IMG/VR virus record: IMGVR_UViG_3300039216_000106
Coordinates: 721-64,720 of that record
DNA from: a virus
Reading direction: 5' to 3' (one strand)
Length of the DNA: 64,000 bases
Both the position numbers and the translations under genes were made by a program. This document shows, in pieces, positions 36,059 through 52,227 of this stretch (positions are counted from its first letter, which is position 1; each line of letters starts with the position of its first letter). The notes below the pieces were generated by a model. The model saw nothing but the letters and a program-made list of their open reading frames with translations. It made no database searches and was not told the origin of the DNA.

Positions 36059-36069
36059 CACGGTCTCCC

Positions 36070-37128: not shown

Positions 37129-37135
37129 GGCCACA

Positions 37136-37303
37136 ATGGAGACCGCACTCCTCGCGCTCTACATCGTCGGTGTTATCGCGTTCGCGCTGATCGCAAACCG
37201 GCACTCACGGTCGCCTCTGGCGATCATCACCATAGCGGCGGCTTGGCCTGCGGCGGTGATTTTGTTTGCGATAGAGGTTGTAACGCGGCGAAAGCTGGTG
37301 TAA
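37136..37303 (+). CDS. Possible 55-aa two-TM membrane peptide
   Basis: METALLALYIVGVIAFALIAN...LAIITIAAAWPAAVILFAI. Not in the ORF track because it is under 60 aa. Confidence 0.3.
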   Translation: METALLALYIVGVIAFALIANRHSRSPLAIITIAAAWPAAVILFAIEVVTRRKLV

Positions 37304-37400
37304 CGTGAGAATTGCCGTGGGCCGATGCGGCGCGCGCGTAGTAATTATTGATGGCATCCAAACATGCGCAGTTTGGCGCTTAGTCTGATAGGACACTCTG

Positions 37401-37874
37401 ATGCCCATCCCTCCCACCTGTCGCAAATGTGGTCACCACCACTGGTCCAACATGCCATGCAAACGAGATTCGGCGCCGGCCAAAGCCGAGGCGCCATCGA
37501 AAGTGTCGGGGGAAACTCCGGGCAGGCCAGCGGTGCGGTCAGCCCCCAAATCCGCGAGGAAGAGGATGACAAAGAGGCCAGATGCCAAACCCGCCCCTGA
37601 CCCGGATCGTGCATCCGGACATTTGCCGGGCCAATCCGACCGAGCACCGCAACAAACCACCAACAAGACGGCCCAGCAGATCATAGCGGAGGGCATGGCG
37701 CGGGCCAAGGATGCCCCTGTCGAGCCCAGCTCGACACCCCGCAGCGGCCGCCCGCTGGCCGTCAATCCCGACCCCATCGACCCGACCGAAATCCGCAAGG
37801 CCCATATCCGCGAACTAACGCTCAAGCGGGTCAGGCGCTTTCGTGAGCGGCAGGCCGCCAGGGCGTCGAAATAG
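37401..37874 (+). CDS. Basic, largely disordered protein with N-terminal Cys/His knuckle
   Basis: 157 aa. Starts CRKCGHHHW, followed by a Pro/Ala/Lys-rich region. Confidence 0.45.
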   Translation: MPIPPTCRKCGHHHWSNMPCKRDSAPAKAEAPSKVSGETPGRPAVRSAPKSARKRMTKRPDAKPAPDPDRASGHLPGQSDRAPQQTTNKTAQQIIAEGMARAKDAPVEPSSTPRSGRPLAVNPDPIDPTEIRKAHIRELTLKRVRRFRERQAARASK

Positions 37875-37884
37875 AGGGGTTATC

Positions 37885-38004
37885 ATGCCAGCATGGGAAT
37901 ATTGGTTGGGAACTTTTCTTCTGGCATGTGGTATTGTCTTAATTCCGATGGCGCCAGTCCTGATAGGTATTTTCTGTGGTTGGTTGTTCGATAGGCACCG
38001 CTGA
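37885..38004 (+). CDS. Possible 39-aa membrane peptide
   Basis: MPAWEYWLGTFLLACGIVLIPMAPVLIGIFCGWLF. Fills the gap between its neighbours. Confidence 0.25.
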   Translation: MPAWEYWLGTFLLACGIVLIPMAPVLIGIFCGWLFDRHR

Positions 38005-38011
38005 GGACCAT

Positions 38012-38341
38012 ATGCGATCAATCCCCACCATTCTATTCCTCGCTATGTTCGCCATTGGTCCGGCCATGGCCTGGGACGCCTACGGCACGCTGCGGCTCAA
38101 GGCTGACACCACGGTCTGCTTCCGCACCCCGACCGAGGTTCAGACCGCGGCCGGATCGGTTGAACTCGGCAAGGATCAATGCCTGACGGTGCGCGCCGAT
38201 GCGCCGCCGCAACCGGTAACCACTGGATTTTCCGATGAATTTCTGGCGTCAATCGGGTTCCACCGCTGCGGCGACGGTCCCAGCGGCAATCTCTACTGCT
38301 ACGCGCCGCCGGCCGCGCCCCGCCCAAAAGAAAAACCGTAA
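38012..38341 (+). CDS. Secreted protein (signal peptide)
   Basis: MRSIPTILFLAMFAIGPAMA-WD is a signal peptide with an AxA cleavage site. Confidence 0.5.
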   Translation: MRSIPTILFLAMFAIGPAMAWDAYGTLRLKADTTVCFRTPTEVQTAAGSVELGKDQCLTVRADAPPQPVTTGFSDEFLASIGFHRCGDGPSGNLYCYAPPAAPRPKEKP

Positions 38342-38823
38342 TGTCGGTTTGGACCCAGGAACTCTGCGACGAAGCCAAGCGAATCTATGTCGTTGACGGT
38401 TATTCCGCGAGTGTCACGGCCAGGATCATCAACACAGCTCACGGCACCACTTTCAGCCGCAACGCTGTGATTGGGAAACTTGCGCGGCTCGGCATTCTCG
38501 GCACAATACCGGAAAGGTCCCGCACTTTCAACCGTTTGCACCGTCCAAAGCAGGTTAAAGACCGCCCGACCCAGCGCATCACCTACAGCCCATCCGAGTT
38601 ACGCGGCGTTACCGATCTTGAGCCCACCGGCCCTGTCCGGGATTTTCCGCCGCGCGGTGGTTGTCAGTTCATGACCGGCGAGCCCGGAGAACCTGACTGG
38701 CGCATGTGCGGCCGCCCCGGCTATCCATGGTGTCCAGAGCACCGTAAGATCGTCTTTCAGCCGCAGTCGAAACAGGCCAGTGTCAGTGCCGACCCTGCGC
38801 CGGCACAATCGGAAGCGGCGTAA
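38341..38823 (+). CDS. gcrA: GcrA-family cell-cycle-regulator homologue (full length)
   Basis: The N-terminus is W....C.EAKRIY..DGYSASVTARII......FSRNAVIGKLARLGI. The C-terminus (GGCQFMTGEPGEPDWRMCGRPGYPWCPEHRKIVFQPQ) matches the GcrA C-terminal motif. Confidence 0.75.
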   Translation: MSVWTQELCDEAKRIYVVDGYSASVTARIINTAHGTTFSRNAVIGKLARLGILGTIPERSRTFNRLHRPKQVKDRPTQRITYSPSELRGVTDLEPTGPVRDFPPRGGCQFMTGEPGEPDWRMCGRPGYPWCPEHRKIVFQPQSKQASVSADPAPAQSEAA

Positions 38824-38833
38824 CGGGCACCAC

Positions 38834-39466
38834 ATGTCAGTCGCCACCGTTCACAAACGCCCAAGGCCGCCGGAATTTGAGCCCGGCACCGTTCCGCCCG
38901 ATTTTATCCCGGCGCCAGACCTCGCCAATTGGGCTATGGCCTCGTTCGTGGTGGACGGCGCCCCACTCGAAAACCCAGATCACCAGCACCTGAGAGACGC
39001 CATCATCGGTTGCCTTTGGGCGACTATTCCAAACAGCCGGCATATGGTCCAGGTCGTTGGTCAGGCCGAACGATCGCAATTTCAAGGCGGCAAGTGGATC
39101 AAGGCCCGCCAAGAGCAGCAGATGCGTGACTGGTTTGGGGAGCTACCGGATTTTATCCTGACGTTCGACGCCGGTTATGCCTCGGTTTGCGACGACGGCA
39201 GCTTCTGCGCGCTGGTCGAACACGAATTGGCACATTGCGGCCAAGCGCTTGACAAATTTGGAGGCCCAAAGTTTACCCGTGACGGACAGCCCGTATATGT
39301 TCTAAAAGGGCACGATGTGGAAGAGTTTGTCTGCATCGTCCGTCGTTACGGTGCTGGCCGCGGCGCTGGAAAGACGCTAGACCTTGTCCAAGCCGCCATG
39401 CAGAGACCAAGCGTTACAGCGGCAGCAATCACCGGAGCGTGCGGAACCTGCCGGACGAAATTCTAA
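38834..39466 (+). CDS. Phage metallopeptidase-like protein (HExxH)
   Basis: Contains ALVEHELAHC (HExxH). Located just upstream of the terminase genes, as in many phages. Confidence 0.55.
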   Translation: MSVATVHKRPRPPEFEPGTVPPDFIPAPDLANWAMASFVVDGAPLENPDHQHLRDAIIGCLWATIPNSRHMVQVVGQAERSQFQGGKWIKARQEQQMRDWFGELPDFILTFDAGYASVCDDGSFCALVEHELAHCGQALDKFGGPKFTRDGQPVYVLKGHDVEEFVCIVRRYGAGRGAGKTLDLVQAAMQRPSVTAAAITGACGTCRTKF

Positions 39467-39486
39467 GAAAATCAGAGGAAATCAAT

Positions 39487-39858
39487 ATGCGAGGCGGCAA
39501 ACGAACGGGCGCCGGACGAAAAAAGGGAGCAATTACAGCGGCTACGCGGCGCCGGAAGGAAATCATAGAAGAGGCGACAAATGCCGGGATTACCCCCCTT
39601 GAGCTGTCGTTACGGCTGATGCGGGCGCTTTGGGCTAAGGCGATCAACCCCAAGGGTGAAATAATCAACGACGGCAAGGCGATGCAGGCGCACATTATCG
39701 CGAAAGACGTGGCGCCATTCGTACATCCGAAGCTGGCCACGATTGAAATGGGCGGCAAAGGTGGGGGCGCGATTGAAATGCACCACCAAGTCATCACCGC
39801 CGAGATGACGGCGAAGGAGGCGGCCGAAGCATATGCAGCCTCCTTGCACAAGAAGTAA
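39487..39858 (+). CDS. terS: Terminase small subunit
   Basis: Basic N-terminus (MRGGKRTGAGRKKGAIT) with GAGGAAA RBS. Directly upstream of, and overlapping, the large subunit gene. Confidence 0.65.
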   Translation: MRGGKRTGAGRKKGAITAATRRRKEIIEEATNAGITPLELSLRLMRALWAKAINPKGEIINDGKAMQAHIIAKDVAPFVHPKLATIEMGGKGGGAIEMHHQVITAEMTAKEAAEAYAASLHKK

Positions 39859-41584
39859 GGAAAACTGGCCGCCGGATTACGTTGCGGTCTACGCTTGGCG
39901 GCAGCAACAGGTATTGCACCTGCGCGCCCACCCAGAGCTTATCGCGGGCGCGAAAGAATATTACCGAACGCGGCCGGCCGAATTCATCAACCACTGGTGC
40001 GACACCTACGACCCGCGCGCCGCAGGGTCAGATGTTCCGACGCGGGTGCCGTTTATCCTGTTCCCGCGCCAGGACGATCTAGTCGAATTTCTCTATGCCT
40101 GCCTCCGTGGCGAGGCGTCGGGGCTGATCGAGAAGTGCCGCGACATGGGCGCGACGTGGGATTGCTGCGGCTTCTCGGTGTGGCTGTGGCTGTTTTGGGA
40201 GGGCGCCGCGGTTGGCTGGGGAAGCCGCAAGGAAGAGCTGGTCGATAAGCTTGGCGACCCGAAGTCGATTTTCGACAAAATCCGCACGCTGGTGTTCAAC
40301 CTGCCGGACTTTTTTCTGCCGAAGGGGTTCAACCCGCGAATTCATAGTGGGTTCATGAAGCTGATCAACCCGGAAAATGGGGCGACGATCACGGGCGAGG
40401 CGGGCGACAATATCGGACGTGGTGGGCGCACGCTCTGTACCTTCAAAGATGAGTCTGCACATTACGAGCATCCCGAAGCGATTGAGGCGGCGCTGTCCGA
40501 AAACACCCGCGTTCAGATTGATCTTTCATCGGTTAACGGCGTCGGTAACGTGTTCCACCGGCGCCGGGAAAATGGCGTCGAGTGGGTACGTGGCGCGCCG
40601 GTGGTTAAGGATCGGGCCAACGTGTTCGTGATGGACTGGCGCGACCACCCGACCAAGACGAAAGAGTGGTACGACACCCGCAAATCCAAATTCGAGAGCG
40701 AGGGGCTGGGCCACATTTTCGCCCAAGAGGTGGACCGGAACTACGCTGCAGCCGTCGCCGGCATCATCATCAAATCGGACTGGGTCAAGGCCGCGATCGA
40801 CGCGCATATCACGCTCGGTATTCCGGAAACCGGGGCATGGGGTGCCGCGCTGGACGTGGCCGATGACGTCGAGGGCGGTGGTAACGACCGTAACGCGCTG
40901 ATCAAGCGCCGCGGTATTGTGCTCAAAGCCGCCGACGAATGGGGCGAGATGGACACCGGCAAGACGGCCAGGCGCGCCGCCTCGTTTTGCGATGGGCATG
41001 GCCAGATCGCGGTCCAGTACGATTGCATCGGGGTAGGCGCCGGGGTCAAGGCTGAGGTCAACCGGCTGATCGAAGACAAGTTGATGCCGCCGTACATCCG
41101 GTTTATCCCTTGGAACGCCGCGGCCAGCCCGCAACACCCCAAGCTGCGCGTGATCAAGCAGGAAGACGACAGCGAGGACAAGGATAGCCCGACCAACGAG
41201 GATTTTTACGCCAACCTGAAGGCGCAGGGCTGGTGGGAGCTGCGGTTCCGGTTCTACCGCACCTATCAGGCGGTGATGGCCGGCGCCCGCTACGACCCGC
41301 GCCGCAACCGCGTGATCGGCCCGCGCATCAATTTCGACCCGAACGACCTAATTTCGATCGACGGCACAATCCCGGTGATACGCCAGATCGAAAAGGAACT
41401 CAGCCAGCCCACGGCCGGGCAGTCCACCAAGATGAAATTGCTGGTCAACAAGGCGCCGGACGGCACCAGATCGCCGAACCTGGGCGACGCGATCATGATG
41501 GCGTATTTCCCGATCGATATTGCAATCCCAGACTGGCTTAAGCCCAAAGGCCCCCCTCCCGTGGTGTCGATATATGGGAGGTGA
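39833..41584 (+). CDS. terL: Terminase large subunit
   Basis: 583 aa. Walker-A-variant region is EKCRDMGATW and the Walker B region is TFKDESAHY. A nuclease-like C-terminal half follows. Confidence 0.85.
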   Translation: MQPPCTRSKENWPPDYVAVYAWRQQQVLHLRAHPELIAGAKEYYRTRPAEFINHWCDTYDPRAAGSDVPTRVPFILFPRQDDLVEFLYACLRGEASGLIEKCRDMGATWDCCGFSVWLWLFWEGAAVGWGSRKEELVDKLGDPKSIFDKIRTLVFNLPDFFLPKGFNPRIHSGFMKLINPENGATITGEAGDNIGRGGRTLCTFKDESAHYEHPEAIEAALSENTRVQIDLSSVNGVGNVFHRRRENGVEWVRGAPVVKDRANVFVMDWRDHPTKTKEWYDTRKSKFESEGLGHIFAQEVDRNYAAAVAGIIIKSDWVKAAIDAHITLGIPETGAWGAALDVADDVEGGGNDRNALIKRRGIVLKAADEWGEMDTGKTARRAASFCDGHGQIAVQYDCIGVGAGVKAEVNRLIEDKLMPPYIRFIPWNAAASPQHPKLRVIKQEDDSEDKDSPTNEDFYANLKAQGWWELRFRFYRTYQAVMAGARYDPRRNRVIGPRINFDPNDLISIDGTIPVIRQIEKELSQPTAGQSTKMKLLVNKAPDGTRSPNLGDAIMMAYFPIDIAIPDWLKPKGPPPVVSIYGR

Positions 41585-41585
41585 C

Positions 41586-41633
41586 TTGTAACGCAATTTA
41601 ATGTTTCAGACATGTAATCAGTCTTGCGTTACC
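41586..41633. promoter_or_regulatory. Inverted pair of the box: cTTGTAACGCAA (41586-41597) and cTTGCGTTAC (41623-41632)
   Basis: 9-bp arms GTAACGCAA/TTGCGTTAC are separated by 28 nt, just after the terminase stop. They are followed by the small GC palindrome GGCCCGGCGGGCC. Confidence 0.45.
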
Positions 41634-41676
41634 GGCCCGGCGGGCCTAGTCTCTTGTCATCAAACGGGAGACGGCT

Positions 41677-41862
41677 ATGGCCATGAAAATCGACATCACG
41701 TTGGAAACCACGGACGATTGGACGGTCTTTTCCGAAGCCAACAGTGACGCTCTTCTTGAGATTTACCCCAACCTCGACGCGGCCATGAAAGCGGCCTGCG
41801 ACGGCGGTATTCAGATGGGCGGTGGCGCGGCGCCGGAGTTTTTCATCCACTTCGCAGGCTGA
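41677..41862 (+). CDS. Hypothetical acidic protein
   Basis: 61-aa ORF, the first gene of the island between terminase and portal. Confidence 0.4.
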   Translation: MAMKIDITLETTDDWTVFSEANSDALLEIYPNLDAAMKAACDGGIQMGGGAAPEFFIHFAG

Positions 41863-41864
41863 TC

Positions 41865-42050
41865 ATGGACCGCAAGCAAATCGACCAATGGCTTAATCCG
41901 CACGTTCTGAACGTATGCCTTGCGGCTCACAGTCGCGAAGAAAACGACCTAAGCCTTGCGATTGAAATGCTGTACCAGCGGGTAGAATTGCTCGTTAGGC
42001 AGGCAGTCCGCGAAGCCCCCACCAACCAAACAAAACGAGGGCAGCCGTGA
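41865..42050 (+). CDS. Hypothetical protein
   Basis: 61-aa ORF starting 2 nt after the upstream stop. Confidence 0.4.
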   Translation: MDRKQIDQWLNPHVLNVCLAAHSREENDLSLAIEMLYQRVELLVRQAVREAPTNQTKRGQP

Positions 42051-42277
42051 TGGGCATTGACCCGGACGAGAAATCCGCATTCAAGGCTTATGTCATAGAT
42101 CGCGCCCGTGATCCTGGTGAGACGCCAAATGCGCGCCAGCGGGCAATGATGGCCTGCCTCGTAATCCCGGCGCCGATCCAGAAGTGGATGATCGAAGCAG
42201 GCGCAATAGAGCCGCTTCTTGATTCCATCGAAAAAACCATAATCGCGGCGGAAAAGTACGCTCGCGAGAATAGATAG
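42047..42277 (+). CDS. Hypothetical protein
   Basis: 76 aa with GTGA overlap. Confidence 0.4.
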   Translation: MMGIDPDEKSAFKAYVIDRARDPGETPNARQRAMMACLVIPAPIQKWMIEAGAIEPLLDSIEKTIIAAEKYARENR

Positions 42278-42291
42278 GGACGGGCTTAGAC

Positions 42292-42450
42292 ATGCCTGTT
42301 TACGATTGCGGAGACCCAGAATGTACCGAATGCCAAAAAGCGTTCGGGCCTAATCGCTCCAAAGCTATCGCCAATTTCAAGGCGCGGGAACGTGAGTACG
42401 ATCGGATAGCGCGCGAAAATCGGGAACTCGCCAACAATGACGCCCGCTGA
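42292..42450 (+). CDS. Possible 52-aa Cys-knuckle protein
   Basis: Starts MPVYDCGDPECTECQKAF. Overlaps the next gene. Not in the ORF track. Confidence 0.35.
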   Translation: MPVYDCGDPECTECQKAFGPNRSKAIANFKAREREYDRIARENRELANNDAR

Positions 42451-42649
42451 CTTCAAATCCGGCCGGAATGCGCTTGGCCTGTCCATTGCCGAACTGGCCG
42501 TGGCCCTCGATACTGACCCGCGCACCATCCGCAAATGGGAGGCTCTGCACGGTAACAGCGCGCGGCCACCGAACCCGATTGCGTGCCGGGTGCTCGGTTG
42601 GATGCTGGCCGGTTTTCGGCCGCCTGAATGGCCGGAAGGCAAGCGGTGA
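42437..42649 (+). CDS. Small HTH (XRE-like) protein
   Basis: Contains FKSGRNALGLSIAELAVALDTDPRTIRKWE. Confidence 0.55.
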   Translation: MTPADFKSGRNALGLSIAELAVALDTDPRTIRKWEALHGNSARPPNPIACRVLGWMLAGFRPPEWPEGKR

Positions 42650-42673
42650 TCAACATTACCGCCGCATTAAATC

Positions 42674-42722
42674 GCGTTACATAGCGGCGAGATCGCTTGC
42701 CGGAATTACGGACGTGCGTTAC
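42674..42722. promoter_or_regulatory. Two GCGTTACA boxes (42674, 42716) in the 127-bp gap upstream of the 42777 gene
   Basis: Same-orientation copies 42 bp apart in non-coding DNA. Confidence 0.4.
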
Positions 42723-42776
42723 AAGACTGCATACCGCTTGAAACGGTTCCGGGCGAGAGGTCAAGAGGGCCAGAAG

Positions 42777-43076
42777 ATGTCGAAGAAATCCACAGTCACC
42801 ACCGAGACCATCCAGTGCGTCCGTGAAATTCCGGGCGAGTACGTTCACGCTGGCACGGTCTACAAGGTCACGCGGAACGAATCCAATCGTGGCATGAAGG
42901 CCACCGCGTATTTCCACAACATCCTGCGTGGCAGCGGAACGTCGATGCCGGAATGGCAGGTTCGCCGCGCCATCGCAAACGGGTCGCTGAAGGTTTTCAC
43001 CGCGGCTGATCCGGCAGTGCTGGTTGGCATGGTCGAAGACGGCATGGCGCTCTACGCAAACGTGGCGCTGGGGTAA
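42777..43076 (+). CDS. Hypothetical protein
   Basis: 99 aa counted from the ATG at 42777. Confidence 0.45.
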   Translation: MSKKSTVTTETIQCVREIPGEYVHAGTVYKVTRNESNRGMKATAYFHNILRGSGTSMPEWQVRRAIANGSLKVFTAADPAVLVGMVEDGMALYANVALG

Positions 43077-43080
43077 GACG

Positions 43081-43272
43081 ATGACGGCGTTTCGTGGCAA
43101 GGCGGCCAGAGAAGCAAGGTGGCTAAAGCGGGCGGAATACATCCACCGCATATCGCTTTCGCTTGCGGAAGAAATTGAGCGCGCTACAGGAGAACGCTCG
43201 ATAGAAACTTCTCTCGCCTATGGGATCAATCTCGACGCGCGCCATTTGATAACGACGCTCGGCGGAAAATAA
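43081..43272 (+). CDS. Hypothetical protein
   Basis: 63 aa counted from the ATG at 43081. Confidence 0.4.
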   Translation: MTAFRGKAAREARWLKRAEYIHRISLSLAEEIERATGERSIETSLAYGINLDARHLITTLGGK

Positions 43273-43284
43273 GGAGACACCAAT

Positions 43285-43509
43285 ATGTCGAAATCAGTCA
43301 AACCCGCAATGTACACTTACAACGGCCACAAAATCACCGTGCGCGGCACGGAAGATTTGCCGGAGGTTGCGGTATTCGATGCGCGCTTTCCAAAAAATGA
43401 TGCGCTCTACAAAACTACGTCGCTTGATTTGGCGATGCGGTGGGTCAATGCTTATCTGGCTGGCGAGCAGTGGGCCGTTTCCGAAAAGCTCGAACCTGCG
43501 ACCGCCTGA
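43285..43509 (+). CDS. Hypothetical protein
   Basis: 74 aa with an AAGGAGA RBS. Confidence 0.5.
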   Translation: MSKSVKPAMYTYNGHKITVRGTEDLPEVAVFDARFPKNDALYKTTSLDLAMRWVNAYLAGEQWAVSEKLEPATA

Positions 43510-43605
43510 CCCTGCAGTCTGAGGGCGAGTAGCGCCGCCTTCTAATGTGTGATCAGATTGTACGGCGCGCCTCAGCCACAGATAGGGGCAGGAAAGACCA
43601 AAGAC

Positions 43606-43995
43606 ATGACCAACCACCCGAACAGAAAGAAGACCGCGGCCCCGCTGCACTGGCGGCAGGGCGACGTACTGCTTGTCGCCACGGATCGGATTCCGGCCGA
43701 CGCCGCGCCGGTCGGACGCGACGAACACAACCGCTTGGTCCTCGCCAACGGCGAAGTCACCGGCCACGCCCACGTCTTCCGCGGCAAGGGCATCTGCGGT
43801 TTCACCAAACTCGACAACAAGGACATCGAATACCTTCTGGTCGAGACCGGTGGCGGTTCCGGCGCCACGCTCAAGCACGAGTTGGTCAGCGGCGCCAAGG
43901 CCGACCATGATCCGCAGCAAATTCCGGACGGCAAATATCTGCTTGGCCAGCAGGTCGAGTATACGCCGGCAGAACTTATCCGTGCGAGCGACTAA
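43606..43995 (+). CDS. Hypothetical beta-rich protein (QGDVLL...GEVTGHAH family seen in phages)
   Basis: 129 aa with an AGGAAAG RBS. Motifs are WRQGDVLLV, LANGEVTGHAH and HDPQQIPDGKY. Confidence 0.5.
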   Translation: MTNHPNRKKTAAPLHWRQGDVLLVATDRIPADAAPVGRDEHNRLVLANGEVTGHAHVFRGKGICGFTKLDNKDIEYLLVETGGGSGATLKHELVSGAKADHDPQQIPDGKYLLGQQVEYTPAELIRASD

Positions 43996-43996
43996 C

Positions 43997-45289
43997 ATGG
44001 CACAAAAACTCGAACTCACAGACGAGCGAAAAGCCATCATCACTGCTTCGCTCGAAGAGTGGATGGCAGCTGGACTGTCCACTGCGCCGGCTGATTTTGG
44101 TGCGGCAGAGGAAGCCATTGCCGTCCTCTATAGCCACATCGGCCGTAAGCGGCCCCATTTTGTTCGGCTCAGTTCTCCGCTCGGTGCAGAACTTTACATA
44201 AACTTGCTTTGTCAAACTTGGCCCAAGGTTGATTTGAAGTCGCTCAGGGACCAGCTCAGGGACCAGCTCGGGGGCCAGCTCTGGGACCAGCTCGGGGACC
44301 AGCTCGGGGACCAGCTCGGGGACCAGCTCGGGGGCCAGCTCGGGGACCAGCTCGGGGGCCAGCTCAGGGACCAGCTCGGGGACCAGCTCTGGGACCAGCT
44401 CGGGGGCCAGCTCGGGGACCAGCTCTGGGACCAGCTCGGGGGCCAGCTCGGGGGCCAGCTCAGGGACCAGCTCGGGGACCAGCTCTGGGACCAGCTCGGG
44501 GGCCAGCTCGGGGACCAGCTCTGGGACCAGCTCAGGGACCAGCTCGGGGGCCAGCTCAGGGACCAGCTCAGGGACCAGAAACTGAACTATATGGGAACGT
44601 GGTTCTGGGGCCAATGGGATTATTTATGGGCATGGCTGGATGGTGGTCGCCGGATTGGCGCTCATTACGATGACAAGCAGAACGCCATGCTTGATGCACA
44701 CTGCACACTAGTCAAATCGTGCGGCTGGTTTTATCCGTTCGATGATTTCTGCATCATCACGGATCGACCGGAAATTATCGCGCGTGATGATCGTGGGAGG
44801 CCGCACTCTGACAATGGCCCTGCACTACGTTATCGTGACGGCTACAGTCTGTACGCGTCACATGGCGTGCGGGTCCCGACCGATCTTGGCGTTGACCACT
44901 CCAAGATCACGGTAGCGCGGATCGACGCGGAACAGAATGCCGAGGTCCGTCGAGTTTTGATCGGCTGGTTCGGCATGGACCGGTATTTGCGGGAATCTGG
45001 CGCTACGGTTGTGCATGAGGACTTTGACGCGCTGGGCAATCCGCGGCGCCTGTTCCGGCGTGAACAGCCGGACGACGAAGCGATTGTCGCCGTTGAGGTG
45101 ACGGATTCGACACCGGTTCCGGATGGTGAGGCCAGAAAGTATGTGATGCGCGTTGATCCGACCAAGTATGACGGCCGCGCTGGCCGGGAGTGCCACGCTG
45201 CGATTGCATCGACGTGGCGGCGCAAGGATGATCTGTCCAAGATGATGTTTGCACGACCCGAGGATTATGCACCGGTAGGCGAGACGTGA
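43997..45289 (+). CDS. Tetrapeptide-repeat protein with DUF6745-like C-terminal domain (by recollection)
   Basis: 430 aa. About 80 aa of N-terminus are followed by 28 x (R/G/W)(D/G)QL. The C-terminal domain is WFWGQWDYLWAWLDG...CGWFYPFDDFCIITDRPE...NGPALRYRDGYSLYASHGVRVP. Confidence 0.7.
   Translation: MAQKLELTDERKAIITASLEEWMAAGLSTAPADFGAAEEAIAVLYSHIGRKRPHFVRLSSPLGAELYINLLCQTWPKVDLKSLRDQLRDQLGGQLWDQLGDQLGDQLGDQLGGQLGDQLGGQLRDQLGDQLWDQLGGQLGDQLWDQLGGQLGGQLRDQLGDQLWDQLGGQLGDQLWDQLRDQLGGQLRDQLRDQKLNYMGTWFWGQWDYLWAWLDGGRRIGAHYDDKQNAMLDAHCTLVKSCGWFYPFDDFCIITDRPEIIARDDRGRPHSDNGPALRYRDGYSLYASHGVRVPTDLGVDHSKITVARIDAEQNAEVRRVLIGWFGMDRYLRESGATVVHEDFDALGNPRRLFRREQPDDEAIVAVEVTDSTPVPDGEARKYVMRVDPTKYDGRAGRECHAAIASTWRRKDDLSKMMFARPEDYAPVGET
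44246..44578 (+). repeat. Tandem array of about 27.75 copies of a 12-bp unit [A/G/T]GGG[A/G]CCAGCTC, in frame
   Basis: Read directly from the sequence. Only two positions of the 12-mer vary (nt 1 and nt 5). Confidence 0.95.
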
Positions 45290-45525
45290 CCATGACACTC
45301 AGCGCAGAAGACTTTACCGCGATTGGTGTTCTGCTCGCCGGCCCAGACTGGAAACTACCGGTATCGAAAATGCTCGGCATCAACGAGCGGACGGTGCGGC
45401 GCTGGGCGAGCGGCGAGGCTGCGGTGCCGTCTGGCGTTGTTCCGCAACTTGAGGAACTTTGCCGGTCTCACGCGACCGATCTGTTGATGTCGGCGCACCG
45501 GCTCAAGGCAATAAAGGTGAAGTGA
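45286..45525 (+). CDS. Small HTH-like protein
   Basis: Contains VSKMLGINERTVRRWASGEAAVP. GTGA overlap with the repeat-protein stop. Confidence 0.5.
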   Translation: MTMTLSAEDFTAIGVLLAGPDWKLPVSKMLGINERTVRRWASGEAAVPSGVVPQLEELCRSHATDLLMSAHRLKAIKVK

Positions 45526-45579
45526 TGGCAAAAACACACATCGTCGTTGATACCGCGAACCGAAAACAAAGGATTGACC

Positions 45580-45993
45580 ATGGGCTGCGAAGAAAACACG
45601 GCGCACGGCGAGAGACCGGAGAATGACCCGGCTGACATACGCAGTGATGTTGCTGAAGGCTTGGCGTTTATTGACGGGCTCTCATCTGATGAGCTGCGCG
45701 CCTTCCTTGGCCTGTTCGCAGGCGCCAGATTTCCATGGACCAGTTTTAACGGCGAAGCGCCCTTTATCGGTAAGGCGGAATGTGAGTGGGTTCCTGACTG
45801 GCGTGACTTTTACGGCAAGAGGTTGAAAGGTGCCGGGTTGTTTCGCTTTAAGGAAGGATCACCACACCCAGCGCTCGGTATGTCACCAGGGTCGACGTTT
45901 GTCGATATCGACTGCGGGCCTACCGCTCTGGGGTATGATGTGCGAGAAGCTTGGTGGAACAGATTAAACAAAGAAGTAAAGGGTAAAATATGA
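45580..45993 (+). CDS. Hypothetical protein
   Basis: 137 aa with an AAGGA RBS. Confidence 0.45.
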   Translation: MGCEENTAHGERPENDPADIRSDVAEGLAFIDGLSSDELRAFLGLFAGARFPWTSFNGEAPFIGKAECEWVPDWRDFYGKRLKGAGLFRFKEGSPHPALGMSPGSTFVDIDCGPTALGYDVREAWWNRLNKEVKGKI

Positions 45994-46175
45994 GCGATGT
46001 TCCAACCATCACCACGTTCATGGGCAAAAACGTCGAGGACATGACGCGAGATGAGTTGATCGACGCCGTGAAGTGTTTGGGCAATATGGTTCAGTCGATG
46101 AGGCGCTGCCAAGAAATTCAGCGTGAGATTGATGAACATCGGCGCCAGCGCTCGGCCGAATATGTGGGTTTGTAA
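45990..46175 (+). CDS. Hypothetical protein
   Basis: 61 aa with ATGA overlap. Confidence 0.4.
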   Translation: MSDVPTITTFMGKNVEDMTRDELIDAVKCLGNMVQSMRRCQEIQREIDEHRRQRSAEYVGL

Positions 46176-46232
46176 CTCCCGCCCAACCGGTTTACATTCT
46201 GCATTCCGCGTTACAACCATCGGGCGCCCCGC

Positions 46233-47960
46233 ATGTTCAAAAAAATTGCCGCCACCGTTCCGGCCTATGACTGGGCGCCAGATGGCTCCCGCTTCCGCAA
46301 ATTGGATCTGTTTGACCGGTTGCTGGACGGCACTTTTTACGACGGGCTGAAGCACTCGTTTTACGATGAGACCGAGGGCATGGGCCAAGCCGCGGTCCCG
46401 ATCCCGATCGATCAGCGCCGCCCGTCAACACAATACCGCCTTCCCCGCATGGTGGCGCGCTGGTCCAGCCGCAAGCTGTTTTCGGGTCGCCACGTCCCCC
46501 GCATCAAGCACGATGACCCCAAGGCTAAGGCACGGGTGGAGGCCCTCATCGTCTCGACCGGGCTTTACCGCAAGATGATGGAAATTGCGTTTCGCGGCTC
46601 TGTGGGCTCGGTGGCGGCGACGTTCAGGGTCGAGACCAACCCCGCGGCGGACGGCAAAAACGAGGATGTGCGCTGCGGCGTGAACGTGTGGAAGGCCAAA
46701 TGGTGCTGGCCCAGCTTTGACACGATGGGCGAGTTGTCCGCGTTACGCATTGCCTACCTGACGTGGCCCGCCGCGTTCGCCGCGATGAACCTCCCCGACC
46801 TCAAGCCGATGGAACCGAACCGGCAATACTGGTTCATCCGCGATTACCTGACCAACTCGGAAGTGACGTTTCAGCCGGTTCTGAAAGAGGACTGGGACCC
46901 CTGTAACGGGTTCAAAGAGGGCGCGACCGAGCACGAATTGACGCCGTGGGACACCCACACGCACGATTTTGGCTTTGTGCCGGGGCATTGGTTCAAGAAT
47001 TTGGCCGGCGGCGAAGACCCGGACGGGGCCTGCACATGGGAAGATGCAATCCCGGATTCGATCGAACTTGACTATGTTTTCAGCCAGGTCGCGCGCGGCA
47101 CCCGTTACAACTGTGCTCCGCAGCCGGTCATCATCGGAAACCTGATGAACCCCGGTGACATGACGCGCGGGCCTGCCGTGGCGCTGTTCCTGGAGCCTGG
47201 GCGAAAGGACCCTGAAGGTAACGTAATCAACGCGGGCGACGCCAAGCTGCTCGAAATGACCGGCAAGGGGATCGAGGCCGGATTGATGGTGGTGGACAAG
47301 CTCCACGACCACGCGCTCGAGCAAATCAGCGCGGCCCGCAAGGACCCTCAGCGCATGAAGGGTGTGTTGTCCGGCCGCGGCATGGAATTCCTGGACCAGG
47401 ACAGCCACGACCTCGTTATGGAACTGCGCACCGCCTACGGCGACGAAGGCTTGCTGCCGCTGCTCCGCAAGATGTGCGTTGCGGTCTACGACGGCGAGAT
47501 TGACGCGGCCCGTATCGCGTTACAGTGGCCGCGTCTCAACCAGCCGGAAGCGGCCGACATATCGTCAATGGCGGACGGTATCAGCAAGTTGCTCAATCCG
47601 CTCCAAGCCGCCTATGCCCCGGCCCGGCCCGCGTCCAGCGAAAAAGGCCCGGACGGCACCACGACGCCGGTCCCGGCCAGCGAAGAGCAAAAGCCGCCGG
47701 AAGACTTCATGTTGGTCACGCCGGACCAAGCCAAGCTGTTCGTCTCGACCTATCTCGACCTGACAACGCTGGAACTGGACGGCGCCGCCGTGGCGGAAGT
47801 CGAGGAACAGTCCACCGCCGACCTGCCGGGCGAGCCGATTGAGACCGCGCCGGCCGCGCTTGGGCCGGAAGACCAAGAAGTAATCGAGGGCGAAGGCGAG
47901 GCGCAGACCGATCCTGTCGCGGACGCCATGCAGAATGTCATCAATCGGATGGGGATGTAG
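46233..47960 (+). CDS. Portal protein candidate
   Basis: 575 aa, the largest ORF between terminase and scaffold. Acidic C-terminal tail. A GCGTTAC box lies 19 nt upstream. Confidence 0.55.
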   Translation: MFKKIAATVPAYDWAPDGSRFRKLDLFDRLLDGTFYDGLKHSFYDETEGMGQAAVPIPIDQRRPSTQYRLPRMVARWSSRKLFSGRHVPRIKHDDPKAKARVEALIVSTGLYRKMMEIAFRGSVGSVAATFRVETNPAADGKNEDVRCGVNVWKAKWCWPSFDTMGELSALRIAYLTWPAAFAAMNLPDLKPMEPNRQYWFIRDYLTNSEVTFQPVLKEDWDPCNGFKEGATEHELTPWDTHTHDFGFVPGHWFKNLAGGEDPDGACTWEDAIPDSIELDYVFSQVARGTRYNCAPQPVIIGNLMNPGDMTRGPAVALFLEPGRKDPEGNVINAGDAKLLEMTGKGIEAGLMVVDKLHDHALEQISAARKDPQRMKGVLSGRGMEFLDQDSHDLVMELRTAYGDEGLLPLLRKMCVAVYDGEIDAARIALQWPRLNQPEAADISSMADGISKLLNPLQAAYAPARPASSEKGPDGTTTPVPASEEQKPPEDFMLVTPDQAKLFVSTYLDLTTLELDGAAVAEVEEQSTADLPGEPIETAPAALGPEDQEVIEGEGEAQTDPVADAMQNVINRMGM

Positions 47961-47961
47961 G

Positions 47962-48171
47962 ATGAACGGTTGGCAACCGATTGAGACCGCGCCAGATGGG
48001 TATACCGATGGCAAGTTTCACTACGTCCTGTTCCTTGGCGTCAGCGTTTCTGGCGCGTTCAGCCACCCCGTGGTCGTAAATGGCTGGATGGATAGCGACC
48101 GCAAACCAGTGCAATGGTATCACTATCGCCTGAAAATTACCCACTGGATGCCAATGCCGGAACTGCCATGA
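47962..48171 (+). CDS. DUF551-domain protein
   Basis: Contains WQPIETAPDG......VLFLG.......THWMPMPELP, the DUF551 pattern. Confidence 0.6.
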   Translation: MNGWQPIETAPDGYTDGKFHYVLFLGVSVSGAFSHPVVVNGWMDSDRKPVQWYHYRLKITHWMPMPELP

Positions 48172-48800
48172 TTGCGGCGTTGTTTGTCGAGACGAACGGC
48201 TGCTACTTCGGACTTGAAGGCGTGGACCCATGGGACGAAACGCGAGACGCGCGGCTCTATCCCGGCCCGCACCCCGTCGTCGCGCATCCGCCCTGCCAGC
48301 GATGGGGGAGGTTCTGGCATGGCAGCACGCGCAAACCGCATCAATTCAAACTTGGCGATGACGGCGGCTGCTTTGCCTCTGCGCTGGCTTCTGTGCGGCA
48401 CTGGGGTGGCGTGCTTGAGCATCCGGCAGACAGCCGGACCTGGTCGGCGTTCAACCTCAACGCCCCGCCGCGCGAAGGCGGGTGGATCGCCGCCGATATG
48501 TCAGGCGGCTGGACGTGCTACGTTGAGCAGGGATTTTACGGTCACCCTTCACGCAAGCCAACTTGGCTGTACGCCCATGGCGTCGATCTGCCGGCGCTTC
48601 ACTGGGGCCGCGGCAATCAGCGCTTGCCCGAATGGATGATTGAGCGTTACGGTTACGAAAAGGCGCGGCGCATCGGCGTTGTTGCTATGATCGGCGGTAA
48701 GGACAAGACGAAGATCCGCAACGCCACGCCGCCGCAGTTCCGCGATCTTTTATTGTCGATTGCGCGGACCGCGGCCGTCGCACAAACCAAGGCAGCCTGA
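48168..48800 (+). CDS. C5-methyltransferase-like protein without a recognisable SAM-binding motif I
   Basis: Contains HPPCQRW (motif IV-like), LEHPADS (motif VI-like) and NATPPQFRDLLLSI (motif X-like). The N-terminus MIAALFVETNGCYFG lacks FxGxG. Confidence 0.45.
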   Translation: MIAALFVETNGCYFGLEGVDPWDETRDARLYPGPHPVVAHPPCQRWGRFWHGSTRKPHQFKLGDDGGCFASALASVRHWGGVLEHPADSRTWSAFNLNAPPREGGWIAADMSGGWTCYVEQGFYGHPSRKPTWLYAHGVDLPALHWGRGNQRLPEWMIERYGYEKARRIGVVAMIGGKDKTKIRNATPPQFRDLLLSIARTAAVAQTKAA

Positions 48801-48804
48801 CCCC

Positions 48805-49224
48805 ATGCGTGACACCATCATCCGCCGCATCCGCCTCCCCCAGCCCAAGATGGGCGGCAAGATGTTCCTTATCCAGGAGCCTGGGCTTTACGTATTCGAG
48901 GAAGGCCCGGCGACGCTTATCACGCTGGCCGTAACGCACGCCGGGTCAGGGACCATCCTTGGTTACGACGGCGTGCCGGACGAAAACGGGCGGTTCCCGG
49001 ACGAGGAAATGCAGGAATGGATGCCGGACGGCAGCCGCAACCCGGACTACGACACCCGCAACGGCCGGGCGATCTACCGCGCCACACCTGCAGTAATGGG
49101 CTCTTGGATGGCGTCAGGCGGCTGTTTTCACGGTCTGGTCATCCATGCGGACGGCGGCGGCCATTCGGTCTGCCCGTTCGCCACTGTAGTCTGGAACGCA
49201 TACAAGGCGAGGGAGAAGACATGA
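48805..49224 (+). CDS. Hypothetical protein
   Basis: 139 aa, tightly packed between its neighbours. Confidence 0.45.
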   Translation: MRDTIIRRIRLPQPKMGGKMFLIQEPGLYVFEEGPATLITLAVTHAGSGTILGYDGVPDENGRFPDEEMQEWMPDGSRNPDYDTRNGRAIYRATPAVMGSWMASGGCFHGLVIHADGGGHSVCPFATVVWNAYKAREKT

Positions 49225-50114
49225 GCAAGTCGATTTGCATCTATCACGGCGGCTGCGATGACGGGTTTGCCGCGGCATGGGCGCTCCGCACATCAATGGT
49301 GCCTGACACATTCGAGTTTCACCCCGGCGTCTACGGTAACGCTCCTCCTGACGTTTCTGATCGGCACGTTGTTCTTGTCGATTTCAGCTACAAGCGCCCA
49401 ATTCTGACCGAAATGGCGAAGGCAGCAAAGTCAATTCTCATTCTCGACCACCACAAGACGGCGGCCGAAGACCTCGCCGGAATGCCGCACCCCGGCACCC
49501 GCGACGAATGGTGTTTCAGTAAGGCGCCGGACGGCGTCGCGGCGATCTTCGATATGACCCGAAGCGGCTCCGGTATCGCGTGGGATTTCTTTCACCCGTA
49601 TCAGGCGCGCCCTGCGTTCATCAATTATGTCGAGGACCGCGACCTTTGGCGCAAGGCGCTTCCGAACGGCGACGAATTTACCATCGCTCTGCGGTCACAT
49701 CCACAAGACTTTGAGACGTGGGACAGGCTTGTCGCCGCAGGCCCAGCGCCCCTGATCGAAGAAGGCCGCGCAATTCAGCGCTATTATCGGCTTCGCGTCG
49801 AGGAACTGAAGCAAAGCTCCTATCTCGCAAAGATTGCTTGGGGCCATGACACCAGAGACCTTACGCGGTCCACCATCGCCATCGCGAACGCGCCATATTT
49901 TGCGGCGAGTGAGGTTGCGGGCGAACTATGCGCCGTCGATGGTGCCGAGTTTGGGGCAAGCTATTTCGAGGTACGGCCTGGACAATGGCAATATTCGCTA
50001 CGATCCCGTGGTGATTTCGATGTTTCGGCGGTCGCCAAGTGCTTCGGTGGCGGCGGGCACAAGAACGCAAGCGGTTTCACCATGCCATGGCCCGTTCACG
50101 AGAAATTGCCGTGA
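49221..50114 (+). CDS. DHH/DHHA1-family phosphoesterase
   Basis: Motifs are IYHGGCDDG (motif I), VLVDFS (II), ILDHHKT (III, DHH) and GGGGHKNASGF (DHHA1 GGGH). Confidence 0.75.
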   Translation: MSKSICIYHGGCDDGFAAAWALRTSMVPDTFEFHPGVYGNAPPDVSDRHVVLVDFSYKRPILTEMAKAAKSILILDHHKTAAEDLAGMPHPGTRDEWCFSKAPDGVAAIFDMTRSGSGIAWDFFHPYQARPAFINYVEDRDLWRKALPNGDEFTIALRSHPQDFETWDRLVAAGPAPLIEEGRAIQRYYRLRVEELKQSSYLAKIAWGHDTRDLTRSTIAIANAPYFAASEVAGELCAVDGAEFGASYFEVRPGQWQYSLRSRGDFDVSAVAKCFGGGGHKNASGFTMPWPVHEKLP

Positions 50115-50341
50115 AGCAGCACCGCACCACCGGCCGCCCCGTGAACAACTCCGTCAGGCACAGCCGGTGCCAGAAGATCACACGTTACGCCATCGCGACC
50201 GCTTTTGCGATTGCACACACCGAACAGTTGCCGGAAACTCTACCCTGCGCATGGTGTGACGGCGATTTCCCGTTGGACGAATTTAGGTGGGTAAACGGCG
50301 AGAAGATCGGCGACACCAAACCCAAAGAGGAAGTGGCATGA
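50111..50341 (+). CDS. Hypothetical protein
   Basis: 76 aa counted from a GTG that overlaps the DHH stop (GTGA). Confidence 0.3.
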   Translation: MKQHRTTGRPVNNSVRHSRCQKITRYAIATAFAIAHTEQLPETLPCAWCDGDFPLDEFRWVNGEKIGDTKPKEEVA

Positions 50342-50631
50342 CCGGTCCCAAAGTCGTCACGCTCAGCGGCGAGCCCATTGAACACGCAATTGAGGGCAAC
50401 ACACCGCTGGCCACGCTGAAGCGGCTCGTCGAGAAGGTCGAAAGCGGCGATATTGTGCTCAAAACCGTGCTGATTTTGGGGGAAAGTCCAAGTCCAAAAG
50501 ACCCAAGTTGCGTTTTCACGAAGGCATGGGACAGCGATATCACGGTGGAGCGGATGATTACGATCATGGAAATGACGAAATTCGACCTAATCGCCAAGTC
50601 GATGGGCATTATCCGGGAGGACGACGCATGA
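50338..50631 (+). CDS. Hypothetical protein
   Basis: 97 aa with ATGA overlap. Confidence 0.45.
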   Translation: MTGPKVVTLSGEPIEHAIEGNTPLATLKRLVEKVESGDIVLKTVLILGESPSPKDPSCVFTKAWDSDITVERMITIMEMTKFDLIAKSMGIIREDDA

Positions 50632-51233
50632 TCAAGACGCGCTACGAGATGACTGAATTGACCACGTACAAAATTGGTGGAGCATCAGCCGACGAAGCGC
50701 TTGTGGTTGTGGATGGCCAGCAAATATTGACCCAGTGCCTTGAGGCCGATACTGCGGCCGGCACCGCCTTGGTCTACGAGACCGACGAACACGGCCATTT
50801 CGTCCGCGACGGCGTGAACCGCAAGACCAAGATGATCCACAGCGCCAGCCTCCGCATCATGCGCCGGATCGATCCGAAGCCCAACACAGATCCCAGCGTT
50901 GAGGCGATCATCGCGGCGCAGAAAGCGCATTACCGGCGCCGGGCCGACGAAGCGGTTGGCGCTGAGGGCAAATTGTGGGCCAAATTGATGCTTGGCCTCT
51001 GCGACCCGCTGGTGCGATGGGTCAATAGCCATGCCGTCCGCGCCGCCAAGGGCGACGTGCTCCGCGCCGTGACATGTGCTGCAGCCTGCCTGGCGGCCCA
51101 GGCGATCAAAAATACCGGCGACACCGACGACATTGCCCAGCGAAAATACGTCGAGACGCTGTTTACCGACGAATTGTCGCGGCTTTTGAAGCAGCAAGTC
51201 GCGGGCCAGACCATCACCCGCACGGATGCGTGA
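50628..51233 (+). CDS. Hypothetical protein
   Basis: 201 aa with ATGA overlap. Confidence 0.5.
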   Translation: MIKTRYEMTELTTYKIGGASADEALVVVDGQQILTQCLEADTAAGTALVYETDEHGHFVRDGVNRKTKMIHSASLRIMRRIDPKPNTDPSVEAIIAAQKAHYRRRADEAVGAEGKLWAKLMLGLCDPLVRWVNSHAVRAAKGDVLRAVTCAAACLAAQAIKNTGDTDDIAQRKYVETLFTDELSRLLKQQVAGQTITRTDA

Positions 51234-51244
51234 AGGAGAAAGAC

Positions 51245-51577
51245 ATGGATTTTACCCAAAGGGTTTCGCTACTACGACGTGAAATGATCGAAAACGTGCA
51301 TCCTCTGGAAAAAGAGGTTTTGATCGGGGCTTCTGACGCGGCCAAAGCCGGGGGAGCGGAAACACTATCAGAAACTGAGTTTGTGGAAGGATATAAGATT
51401 GGCGACGATCTTGCCGACGTGGCCAACAGCATGATTCGAGATGCTCGGAACTTTGGCGTTCGTATTGGCCAGACGATCTCTCCAGACGCGGCGAAAAGAT
51501 TGGTGGTTGATGCCGTTTTTATGAGCTTTTCTGAAAAAAGCGACATCATCCTCTTGAAATTGACGGCTAATGCTTGA
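51245..51577 (+). CDS. Hypothetical protein
   Basis: 110 aa with a strong GAAGGAGAAAG RBS. Confidence 0.5.
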   Translation: MDFTQRVSLLRREMIENVHPLEKEVLIGASDAAKAGGAETLSETEFVEGYKIGDDLADVANSMIRDARNFGVRIGQTISPDAAKRLVVDAVFMSFSEKSDIILLKLTANA

Positions 51578-51923
51578 ACCCCCCGAAATCGACATGCGCA
51601 CGGTGCGGGACATCTACACGCCGCCCGCGCCCGGCACGTTGATGCGCATGGTCAGTCTGCACAAGAGCGGGCTGTACCGGCTGGCGAGGCGTTCGAGTGA
51701 ACTCTACTCGGTTTTGATCGTCGGGCAGGGGGCTTGGGCGAAGGCGCGGATCATGACCGGCACCGGTCGGCCGGTCTGGGAAATGCCTTCGGCCTTCAGT
51801 GGTTCATTTCTCCTGCTCGGGTATTGCGAAGAAGGTATCATCGCCCACCTTCACGCATTCGAGCAAGGCGACAGTCTCAATTTCTCGGTCCAGTTCAGAG
51901 AACCGGACGCCAAGCTGGTTTGA
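51570..51923 (+). CDS. Hypothetical protein
   Basis: 117 aa, overlapping the upstream gene by 8 nt. Confidence 0.45.
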   Translation: MLEPPEIDMRTVRDIYTPPAPGTLMRMVSLHKSGLYRLARRSSELYSVLIVGQGAWAKARIMTGTGRPVWEMPSAFSGSFLLLGYCEEGIIAHLHAFEQGDSLNFSVQFREPDAKLV

Positions 51924-51997
51924 TAACGCGTTACATCATTCCCCGTTTGTAAGTTCCGCCGGTTGCGATAAACTGCGCACCGAAAGGTTCGTAACGC
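51924..51997. promoter_or_regulatory. Perfect palindrome TAACGCGTTA (51924-51933) plus a GTAACGC box abutting the ATG at 51998
   Basis: aaAGGTTCGTAACGCATG here and gaGGTTCGTAACGCAATG at 9997-10014 share a 14-nt string. Confidence 0.45.
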
Positions 51998-52222
51998 ATG
52001 GCGCGAATTCCCATTCCGTCACCAACGTCTGGCATTCTGTCGTCTCAGGCGGCGGAAGACGGGGCTTTGATGGAAGAGGGCGAATCCATCGGTCAGGTTG
52101 AGGTCATGAAAATGTTTACGGATGTCATGTCCCCCGCGACCGGCCGCATCAAATGGCTCATTGGCCTTGGTGAATGCGTGGAATACGACGACATCCTTGC
52201 CGAAATAGAAACTGAGGGCTGA
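51998..52222 (+). CDS. Biotinyl/lipoyl-carrier domain protein (VMKM biotinylation-type motif)
   Basis: 74 aa. SPTSGIL......GALMEEGESIGQVEVMKMFTDVMSPATGRIKWLIGLGECVEYDDILAEIE aligns with the BCCP C-terminal domain (E-A/V-M-K-M). Confidence 0.65.
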   Translation: MARIPIPSPTSGILSSQAAEDGALMEEGESIGQVEVMKMFTDVMSPATGRIKWLIGLGECVEYDDILAEIETEG

Positions 52223-52227
52223 AGCCT

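Follow-up and report, generated by a model that had tools for sequence, protein, structure and literature searches.

An in-frame 12-bp repeat array of variable length in a DUF6745-family phage gene, and a possible counter-defence role by analogy with Tweety gp54

The repeat array and the gene that carries it

The stretch of DNA analysed here, hereafter the window, comprises 64,000 nucleotides of the IMG/VR virus record IMGVR_UViG_3300039216_000106 (positions 721 to 64,720 of that record) and holds, at 43997..45289 on the plus strand (stop included), a gene of the DUF6745 family that starts with ATG and encodes 430 amino acids (aa). Its product consists of an N-terminal helical domain, a repeat array and a C-terminal DUF6745 domain. 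The array is a 12-bp minisatellite at 44246..44578 on the same strand, made of 27 full units NGGGRCCAGCTC followed by AGGGACCAG of a last unit; its translation, residues 84-195 of the product, reads (R/G/W)(D/G)QL 27 times and then RDQ(K). Tandem Repeats Finder reports it as a single strong array at 44242-44578 (period 12, 28.1 copies, 90% matches, 0 indels, score 534), and in-frame reading from 44246 gives the 27 full units and then AGGGACCAGAAA, which encodes RDQK. The in-frame array proposed in an earlier reading of this DNA, made from the sequence only, is thus real.

That reading had also remarked that only nucleotides 1 and 5 of the unit vary, and this is true of the window array as well as, by and large, of about 30 arrays of the family treated below. 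Across the 27 full units nucleotide 1 is G in 16, A in 6 and T in 5, nucleotide 5 is A in 19 and G in 8, and positions 2-4 and 6-12 are invariant. Four unit types result, GGGGAC (GDQL) and GGGGGC (GGQL) with 8 copies each, AGGGAC (RDQL) with 6 copies plus the closing RDQK unit, and TGGGAC (WDQL) with 5 copies. Units of the RG and WG types are missing from the window array (hypergeometric C(16,8)/C(27,8) = 0.006), but this avoidance is not upheld family-wide, where residues 1 and 2 pair freely. The window gave 27 matches to a two-unit pattern, 100 dinucleotide-preserving shuffles gave none, and no copy of the 12-bp unit was found elsewhere in the window, even with up to 2 mismatches. The G+C content of the array is 74%, compared with 56% in the remainder of the gene, and glycine makes up 21% of its residues.

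Two further observations concern the DNA of the array. On the minus strand, a 212-aa open reading frame (ORF) at 43976-44614 (ELVPELAPELVP..., ELVPELAP...) is a shadow of the repeat and no gene, by which gene callers could be misled. On the coding strand, the NGG codon followed by a G-initial codon produces a run of 3-5 G every 12 nt, and such runs might form G-quadruplexes and so perhaps contribute to replication slippage.

The assignment of the C-terminal domain to DUF6745, made previously without any database search, is borne out by a hidden Markov model search, in which residues 223-396 match the Pfam family (PF20530) with 153.7 bits against a cut-off of 27 (E = 5e-45), over profile positions 20-188 of 206. 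The C-terminal region as a whole (residues 195-430; 44579..45286, plus strand) begins with a Trp-rich helix (WFWGQWDYLWAWLD) that leads into the DUF6745 domain, is mostly modelled with a predicted local distance difference test score (pLDDT) above 90, and carries near-invariant motifs including TDRP, H270, YRDG and N.E.RR. The N-terminal domain (residues 1-83; 43997..44245, plus strand) is predicted to form three helices and one strand, likewise with pLDDT > 90. Its conserved motifs can be written LT.E...W...GLST.PADF..AE.AI..LY....P.FV.LSSP, and it is without a Pfam model of its own. Its measured length of 83 aa, the first repeat residue being 84, agrees with the roughly 80 aa given earlier, and the C-terminal sequences quoted at that time are found in the product. 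An AlphaFold2 model built on a 98-sequence alignment has a mean pLDDT of 82.6 and a predicted template-modelling score (pTM) of 0.71, with pLDDT > 90 at residues 1-75 and 205-410. When this model was compared by Foldseek with BFVD, the matches were to other DUF6745 proteins only, and PHROGs placed the repeat protein in families of unknown function only.

Several weaker matches were discarded. Those from a sequence search of the PDB, to eukaryotic low-complexity repeats such as PGQM and EEVG, are compositional; a Pfam DUF2939 match reaches 24.4 bits and so lies below its cut-off of 24.8, and it falls on the repeat stretch, as do the sub-threshold matches behind the extra families precomputed for some homologues.

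The partner gene

Immediately upstream lies P0121, a plus-strand gene at 43606..43995 whose stop codon ends one base before the ATG of the DUF6745 gene and whose product is a small all-beta protein of 129 aa, predicted as such with a pLDDT of 90. It has 500 homologues, and its invariant residues are RQGD, GE.TGH.H, two further His (making four invariant His in all), Q.EY.P and a C-terminal Asp; the protein belongs to no Pfam family. A profile search of the fetched loci placed the partner immediately upstream or downstream of the DUF6745 gene in about 29 of the 31 loci with both flanks readable, an adjacency that spans cyanophage Ma-LMM01 (gp175) to a Mycobacteroides abscessus prophage (gp37). 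In one protein, P0198, the partner is fused with the C-terminal subdomain of DUF6745, a fusion from which contact between the partner and this subdomain would be predicted. The DUF6745 gene and the small His-rich beta protein form a conserved two-gene module.

Repeats across the DUF6745 family

A word-indexed search returned 518 homologues of the 430-aa protein, 120 of which were listed, the best among the 518 sharing 58% identity with the window protein. Nearly all of the 120 listed homologues have a common layout, with a 75-aa N-terminal domain, an x-x-Q-L (or Q-V) array and the DUF6745 domain. At least 4 units are present in 117 of them, within a range of 2 to 49 units, and at residue 1 of the unit R accounts for 31%, G for 31% and W for 23%, while residue 2 is D in 48% and G in 39%. 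Since this search is biased toward repeat words, the C-terminal domain alone was used as a query against 1.84 billion cluster representatives. It retrieved 7,913 clusters (50% identity) at E <= 0.001 and 4,434 at E <= 1e-10, and at least 4 clean units were present in 41 of 141 new representatives (29%). As in the listed homologues, R, G and W predominate at residue 1 in these new representatives; their constant dipeptides include QV, QL, NL, SL, SV, AT and AV, among others.

Among named members, gp38 of the M. abscessus prophage prophiGD102-1 carries about 50 [WRG][DG]QL units. This protein, gp174 of Microcystis phage Ma-LMM01 and a hypothetical protein of Caudoviricetes sp. MW202476 resemble the window protein in both terminal domains and in having the partner gene alongside; they differ from it in that the units of the MW202476 protein are [WGRE]SSL and gp174 is repeat-less. 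Long arrays are found in the genomes of isolates, namely Brevundimonas olei, Arthrobacter sp. GN70 and the M. abscessus prophage. Some homologues, P0007 and P0013 among them, carry degenerate 'fossil' arrays in which the four-residue period is kept, the units have diverged and Pro is present, which suggests that homogenisation can cease while the segment stays.

Codon pattern and selection within the array

About 30 related arrays, comprising 672 units, were read as DNA and the minor-allele fraction was computed for each position of the unit. It reaches 0.52 at position 1 and 0.33 at position 5, falls to 0.07 at position 2, and is 0.03 or less at all third codon positions. For positions 7-12 the fraction is about 0, a value to be read with the array detection rule in mind, as that rule demands a constant dipeptide and rules out non-synonymous, not synonymous, change there. 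Throughout these arrays the polymorphism lies at base 1 of codon 1 (Trp/Arg/Gly) and base 2 of codon 2 (Asp/Gly or Asp/Ala).

The codons themselves behave differently within and between arrays. The Gln and Leu/Val codons are the same in all units of one array and differ from array to array, Leu being CTC, CTT, TTG or CTG, Gln CAG or CAA and Asp GAC or GAT; Arg is AGG or CGG by array, never both within one. One array has TAC/CGC/GGC/AAC, for Tyr/Arg/Gly/Asn. Because the codons vary between arrays while the peptide pattern is kept, the pattern is conserved at the protein level and not as a DNA motif.

These data indicate that slippage, unequal exchange or conversion turns the units over fast enough to erase synonymous differences, and that the mixtures of aromatic, Arg and Gly residues and of Asp and Gly (or Ala) are maintained by protein-level selection. 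At residues 3-4 of the unit, Gln-Leu is likewise preserved by selection. In the family arrays, identical units stand side by side less often than expected (0.100 observed versus 0.157 expected, z = -8.2), a result that is compatible with selection for alternation or with preferential loss of perfect 24-bp direct repeats. With two non-synonymous sites polymorphic and synonymous sites not, the pattern within arrays is a clean natural case of concerted evolution combined with selection for heterogeneity.

Expansion, contraction and assembly of the array

The sequence-only reading had predicted that such an array should expand and contract, and comparison of copy number among relatives supports this. 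Four pairs of homologues with flanks 100% identical differ in their arrays by 30 versus 16, 25 versus 4, 38 versus 14 and 35 versus 18 units, and two viral contigs of separate samples show, across 18,044 bp, a single difference, a 12-bp indel in the array. All observed array indels are multiples of 12. Turnover in the array, by which 12-bp units are added or lost and unit types are rearranged, is much more rapid than mutation elsewhere in the genome.

A second assembly of the window phage was found, via the partner gene and the 575-aa gene downstream, in ENA ERZ28653740 (scaffolds 6561 and 24105; L032 and L034). One scaffold stops inside the array from the left and the other begins inside it from the right. 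Over the 10.7 kb shared with the window there are 3 mismatches, all at array positions 1 or 5, and the ERZ28653740 array holds WGQL and GVQL unit types that are absent from the window array. For the window phage itself the comparison therefore shows unit-type differences and contig breaks in the array, the copy-number difference being seen directly only in relatives. Array-associated ends are not peculiar to this phage: among 22 related viral contigs, 8 terminate within or at the array.

The longest exact internal repeat of the window array measures 91 bp, at an offset of 96 bp; the array is resolvable with ordinary reads, and the count of 28 is as assembled. A 26-mer from the left flank had no match in JGI metagenome contigs or IMG/VR, and neither the exact 430-aa product nor the 79-aa product downstream was on record.

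Genomic setting

The window is a phage genome, as seen from a terminase large subunit gene (39833-41584) and genes for a tail-fibre-like protein of 1,189 aa and a DHH phosphoesterase-like protein; further genes encode baseplate J, a gp53-like fibre, RecT, a 5'-3' exonuclease and a DNA methylase. No tRNA genes were found in the window, and megablast of 36000-56000 against GenBank phages gave no match. The closest relatives lie in Brevundimonas, Hyphomonas, Maricaulis, Henriciella and Caulobacteraceae genomes, so the host is probably an alphaproteobacterium of that group.

The repeat gene belongs to a series of small genes, all oriented alike, that separates the terminase gene from a 575-aa ORF in portal position (46233-47960), which has no Pfam, PHROG or NCBIfam match. 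These small genes occupy about 4.6 kb (41600-46230), an unusual site for an accessory cluster between terminase and presumed portal ORF, and two of them encode helix-turn-helix-like proteins (42437-42649 and 45286-45525). The DHH/DHHA1 phosphoesterase-like gene (49017-50114, plus strand; phrog_4771, E = 1e-80) is found just downstream of the presumed portal and head genes, and a related viral contig (L014) encodes, upstream of its DUF6745 gene, a homologue with 68% identity to the product of the neighbouring 48114-48800 (phrog_12600). Elsewhere, DUF6745 loci are situated in early or accessory regions of phages and prophages, near genes for RecT, exonuclease, methylase, Cro/CI-like regulator and integrase. 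A scan for promoters and terminators revealed nothing above the shuffled background, and the Ma-LMM01 transcriptome paper makes no mention of gp174 or gp175 by name.

Other tandem repeats in the window are minor. A 15-bp repeat GGCGCGGGCGGAGGT occurs in 3.2 copies at 21949-21996, near the 3' end of a 628-aa minus-strand gene, the product of which is a 5'-3' exonuclease in its N-terminal part; it would give a short pentapeptide repeat. Weak, low-scoring repeats are present at 9426-9489 (period 24, 2.7 copies) and, inside the terminase gene, at 40380-40428 (period 22, 2.2 copies).

Interpretation and alternative explanations

We are confident in describing the array as a hypermutable coding minisatellite that is selected for heterogeneity and sits inside a conserved two-gene accessory module. 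A fuller interpretation, to which we assign a probability of roughly 0.45, takes it as the hypervariable middle module of a non-structural DUF6745 phage accessory protein that would have, by analogy with gp54 of mycobacteriophage Tweety, a tunable role against defence systems. The anti-defence role of the module, considered on its own, is tentative and borrowed from that likeness.

How such a protein might work can be sketched as follows. The pTM of the model and the existence of repeat-less members suggest that the N- and C-terminal domains together make up a compact globular body from which the array would project. If the array is a helical hairpin, each added unit would extend the stalk by roughly 3 Å, and array length together with unit composition may determine how far the protein reaches or what surface it offers for binding. 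The module could then neutralise or evade a defence encoded by the host or by a prophage, in the manner of Tweety gp54, and changes in the repeat would supply ready-made variants that retune it to different defences. It is rather doubtful, though conceivable, that this holds generally, with DUF6745 and its His-rich partner as a very widespread two-gene phage module (thousands of clusters, from cyanophages to actinobacterial prophages) whose self-homogenising minisatellite acts as an evolvable dial, slippage making the variants and selection picking those that neutralise the defence of the current host.

A number of results weigh against the proposed anti-defence function and the structural picture attached to it. 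AlphaFold2 does model the array as a helical hairpin (helices 80-135 and 140-193), at a low pLDDT of 52-67, which leaves the rod or spacer of the sequence-only reading tentative, and such a hairpin is weakened by the 21% Gly of the array and by the Pro in the degenerate arrays of homologues. Foldseek found no solved fold in the PDB for the full model (best E about 0.7) and no PDB fold match for the model of the partner (best E about 0.7). PADLOC and NCBIfam gave no usable match, and a literature search for DUF6745, PF20530 and six repeat peptides yielded no paper, with no function shown for any DUF6745 protein. About 70% of the unbiased family representatives are without a clean array, and a non-repeat linker takes its place in Ma-LMM01 gp174, so the array is not essential to the core function of the family. 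Homology between the flanking regions of gp54 and the window protein was not detected (no Pfam family for gp54, hhalign probability 0.1%, BLASTP E = 1), which makes any transfer of function from gp54 a pure analogy. Lastly, short-read assembly struggles at the array, and part of the copy-number differences among metagenomic sequences may be collapse.

Among the alternatives, it seems unlikely that the array is merely a low-complexity insertion, prone to slippage and tolerated within a surface loop, which persists because in-frame 12-bp changes do no harm and which has no specific function in either its length or its unit mixture. The frequent absence of a clean array, the wide variation of the constant dipeptide (QL, QV, NL, SL, SV, AT, AV), the repeat-less gp174, the fossil arrays and the low-confidence model of the array would all suit such an insertion. 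A neutral insertion would nevertheless leave synonymous polymorphism equal to or above non-synonymous polymorphism, whereas third positions are near invariant and the two non-synonymous sites are highly polymorphic in every array; plain unit duplication would enrich identical neighbours, which instead are depleted; and the same aromatic/Arg/Gly mixture recurs with other codons and in distant lineages. The arrays also adhere throughout to a four-residue period that has a hydrophobic residue in fourth place. We also think it quite unlikely that the module serves defence, superinfection exclusion or another host-manipulating function (for example as a sensor) in place of counter-defence, with the array as a variable recognition surface. 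The gene is co-oriented with lytic early genes and downstream of Cro-like regulators, the family is present among the replication genes of the lytic myovirus Ma-LMM01, and PADLOC gives no match, while on the other side many copies reside in prophages near integrase and repressor genes, a frequent site of prophage defence genes, and small defence systems typically consist of two genes kept together.

An improbable explanation accepts the array as real and attributes its copy number and unit order in the window to assembly, through collapse or chimerism of population variants. An 8-unit block could be lost or gained by a short-read assembler at the 91-bp internal repeat, the ERZ28653740 contigs stop inside the array from both sides with WG and GV units that the window lacks, and the ends of 8 of the 22 related contigs point the same way; yet the unit order is aperiodic enough to be resolved by reads of at least 100 bp, the reading frame is kept, the array size falls in the middle of the family range, and long arrays are not confined to metagenomes, being present in the three isolate genomes named above. 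Targeted hypermutation, by a diversity-generating retroelement or similar, and a role of the repeats as DNA, whether as protein-binding iterons or as a site for packaging or replication, are highly improbable. That positions 1 and 5 of the RDQL unit are adenines and the sole variable sites might recall a retroelement, but no template copy of the unit exists in the window even when 2 mismatches are allowed, Tandem Repeats Finder detected no related array, no reverse transcriptase appeared among the about 30 window ORFs scanned with Pfam or PHROGs, and none of the 28 units departs from adenine at position 8. The use of AGG or CGG for Arg within any one array, not both, fits inherited unit types rather than A-to-N mutagenesis. 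The retroelement was rejected on the missing template repeat, the invariant adenine and the single Arg codon per array, and a DNA-level function, which the location between terminase and presumed portal gene might favour, was rejected on the difference in codons between lineages that keep the peptide pattern and not the DNA motif.

Should the analogy with Tweety gp54 hold, arrays of this kind would represent a common route for rapid evolution of phages against defences, their nature would explain why short-read assemblies routinely break in these genes, and the many natural variants together with tractable hosts would offer material for working out the mechanism.

Comparison with known systems

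Of the known systems, the window protein most closely resembles gp54 of mycobacteriophage Tweety, to our knowledge the sole phage tetrapeptide-repeat protein studied experimentally. In both of these phage accessory proteins, an N-terminal and a C-terminal region of unique sequence enclose tens of in-frame 12-bp tetrapeptide repeats; two residues of the unit vary and two do not, and third codon positions are invariant. The gp54 array consists of a 12-bp unit in 48 copies, against 26 in Che8 (gp57) and 15 in PMC (gp51) (PMC2884959; Pham et al., 2007). Two invariant Ala, variation at first and second codon positions only and a G+C spike have been described for it, a pattern 'consistent with selection for variation' according to its authors (PMC2884959). 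According to two reviews, the number of repeats is raised or lowered in Tweety mutants that escape defence on Phrann gp29/gp30 or MichelleMyBell lysogens (PMC9262239, PMC8549241), and it was concluded that repeat changes 'tune' gp54 as a counter-defence by a mechanism called obscure (PMC9262239, PMC8549241, citing Dedrick et al., 2017).

Our recomputation of the Tweety array gives GGG/TGG/CAG, then AGC/TAC, then GCC GCA, at a G+C content of 79%, and the spike is thus common to both arrays (79% in Tweety, 74% in the window). The first variable codon is NGG in both, for Gly/Trp and one more residue (Gln in Tweety gp54), and the second codon has two alleles. Copy number varies among close relatives in both cases, with 48, 26 and 15 in the Tweety group and 30 versus 16 and similar in DUF6745 relatives, and both genes are found in the early, non-essential region of a temperate phage. 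They differ in the constant dipeptide, which is Ala-Ala in gp54 and Gln-Leu in the window protein, and in their domains, since in gp54 the N-terminal domain is the long one and the C-terminal domain the short one, the opposite of the window protein. The His-rich partner gene was not found adjoining gp54, and counter-defence is demonstrated for gp54 only, the window protein being likened to it by its design. The resemblance is an analogy, possibly a convergence.

A second phage comparison is offered by variable region 2 of Bbp36 in Bordetella phage BPP-1/BMP-1, an in-frame array of 9-20 copies by isolate in a non-essential gene (PMC2884959). The likeness extends to an in-frame tandem array of varying copy number in a non-essential phage gene, located in the early region next to cI. 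Bbp36 has a 24-bp unit that encodes GTATAGYR octapeptides and belongs to another protein family, and it was rejected as a member of the same repeat family on account of this different unit.

Bacterial contingency loci are simple-sequence repeats that switch genes on and off. As in these loci, a slippage-prone repeat in a gene of the host-parasite conflict would give rise to frequent heritable variants. The window unit is, in contrast, a multiple of three, so that length and composition of the protein are altered and no on/off switch results; a phase-variable contingency locus was rejected because, with a 12-bp unit and all observed indels multiples of 12, no frame shift occurs.

What is new in the present case is that a repeat design like that of Tweety gp54 is found in an unrelated, very large and unstudied family, with a previously undescribed partner gene that is nearly always adjacent. 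If the array does act as an evolvable dial, Tweety gp54 would be one case of a general, convergently evolved phage strategy.

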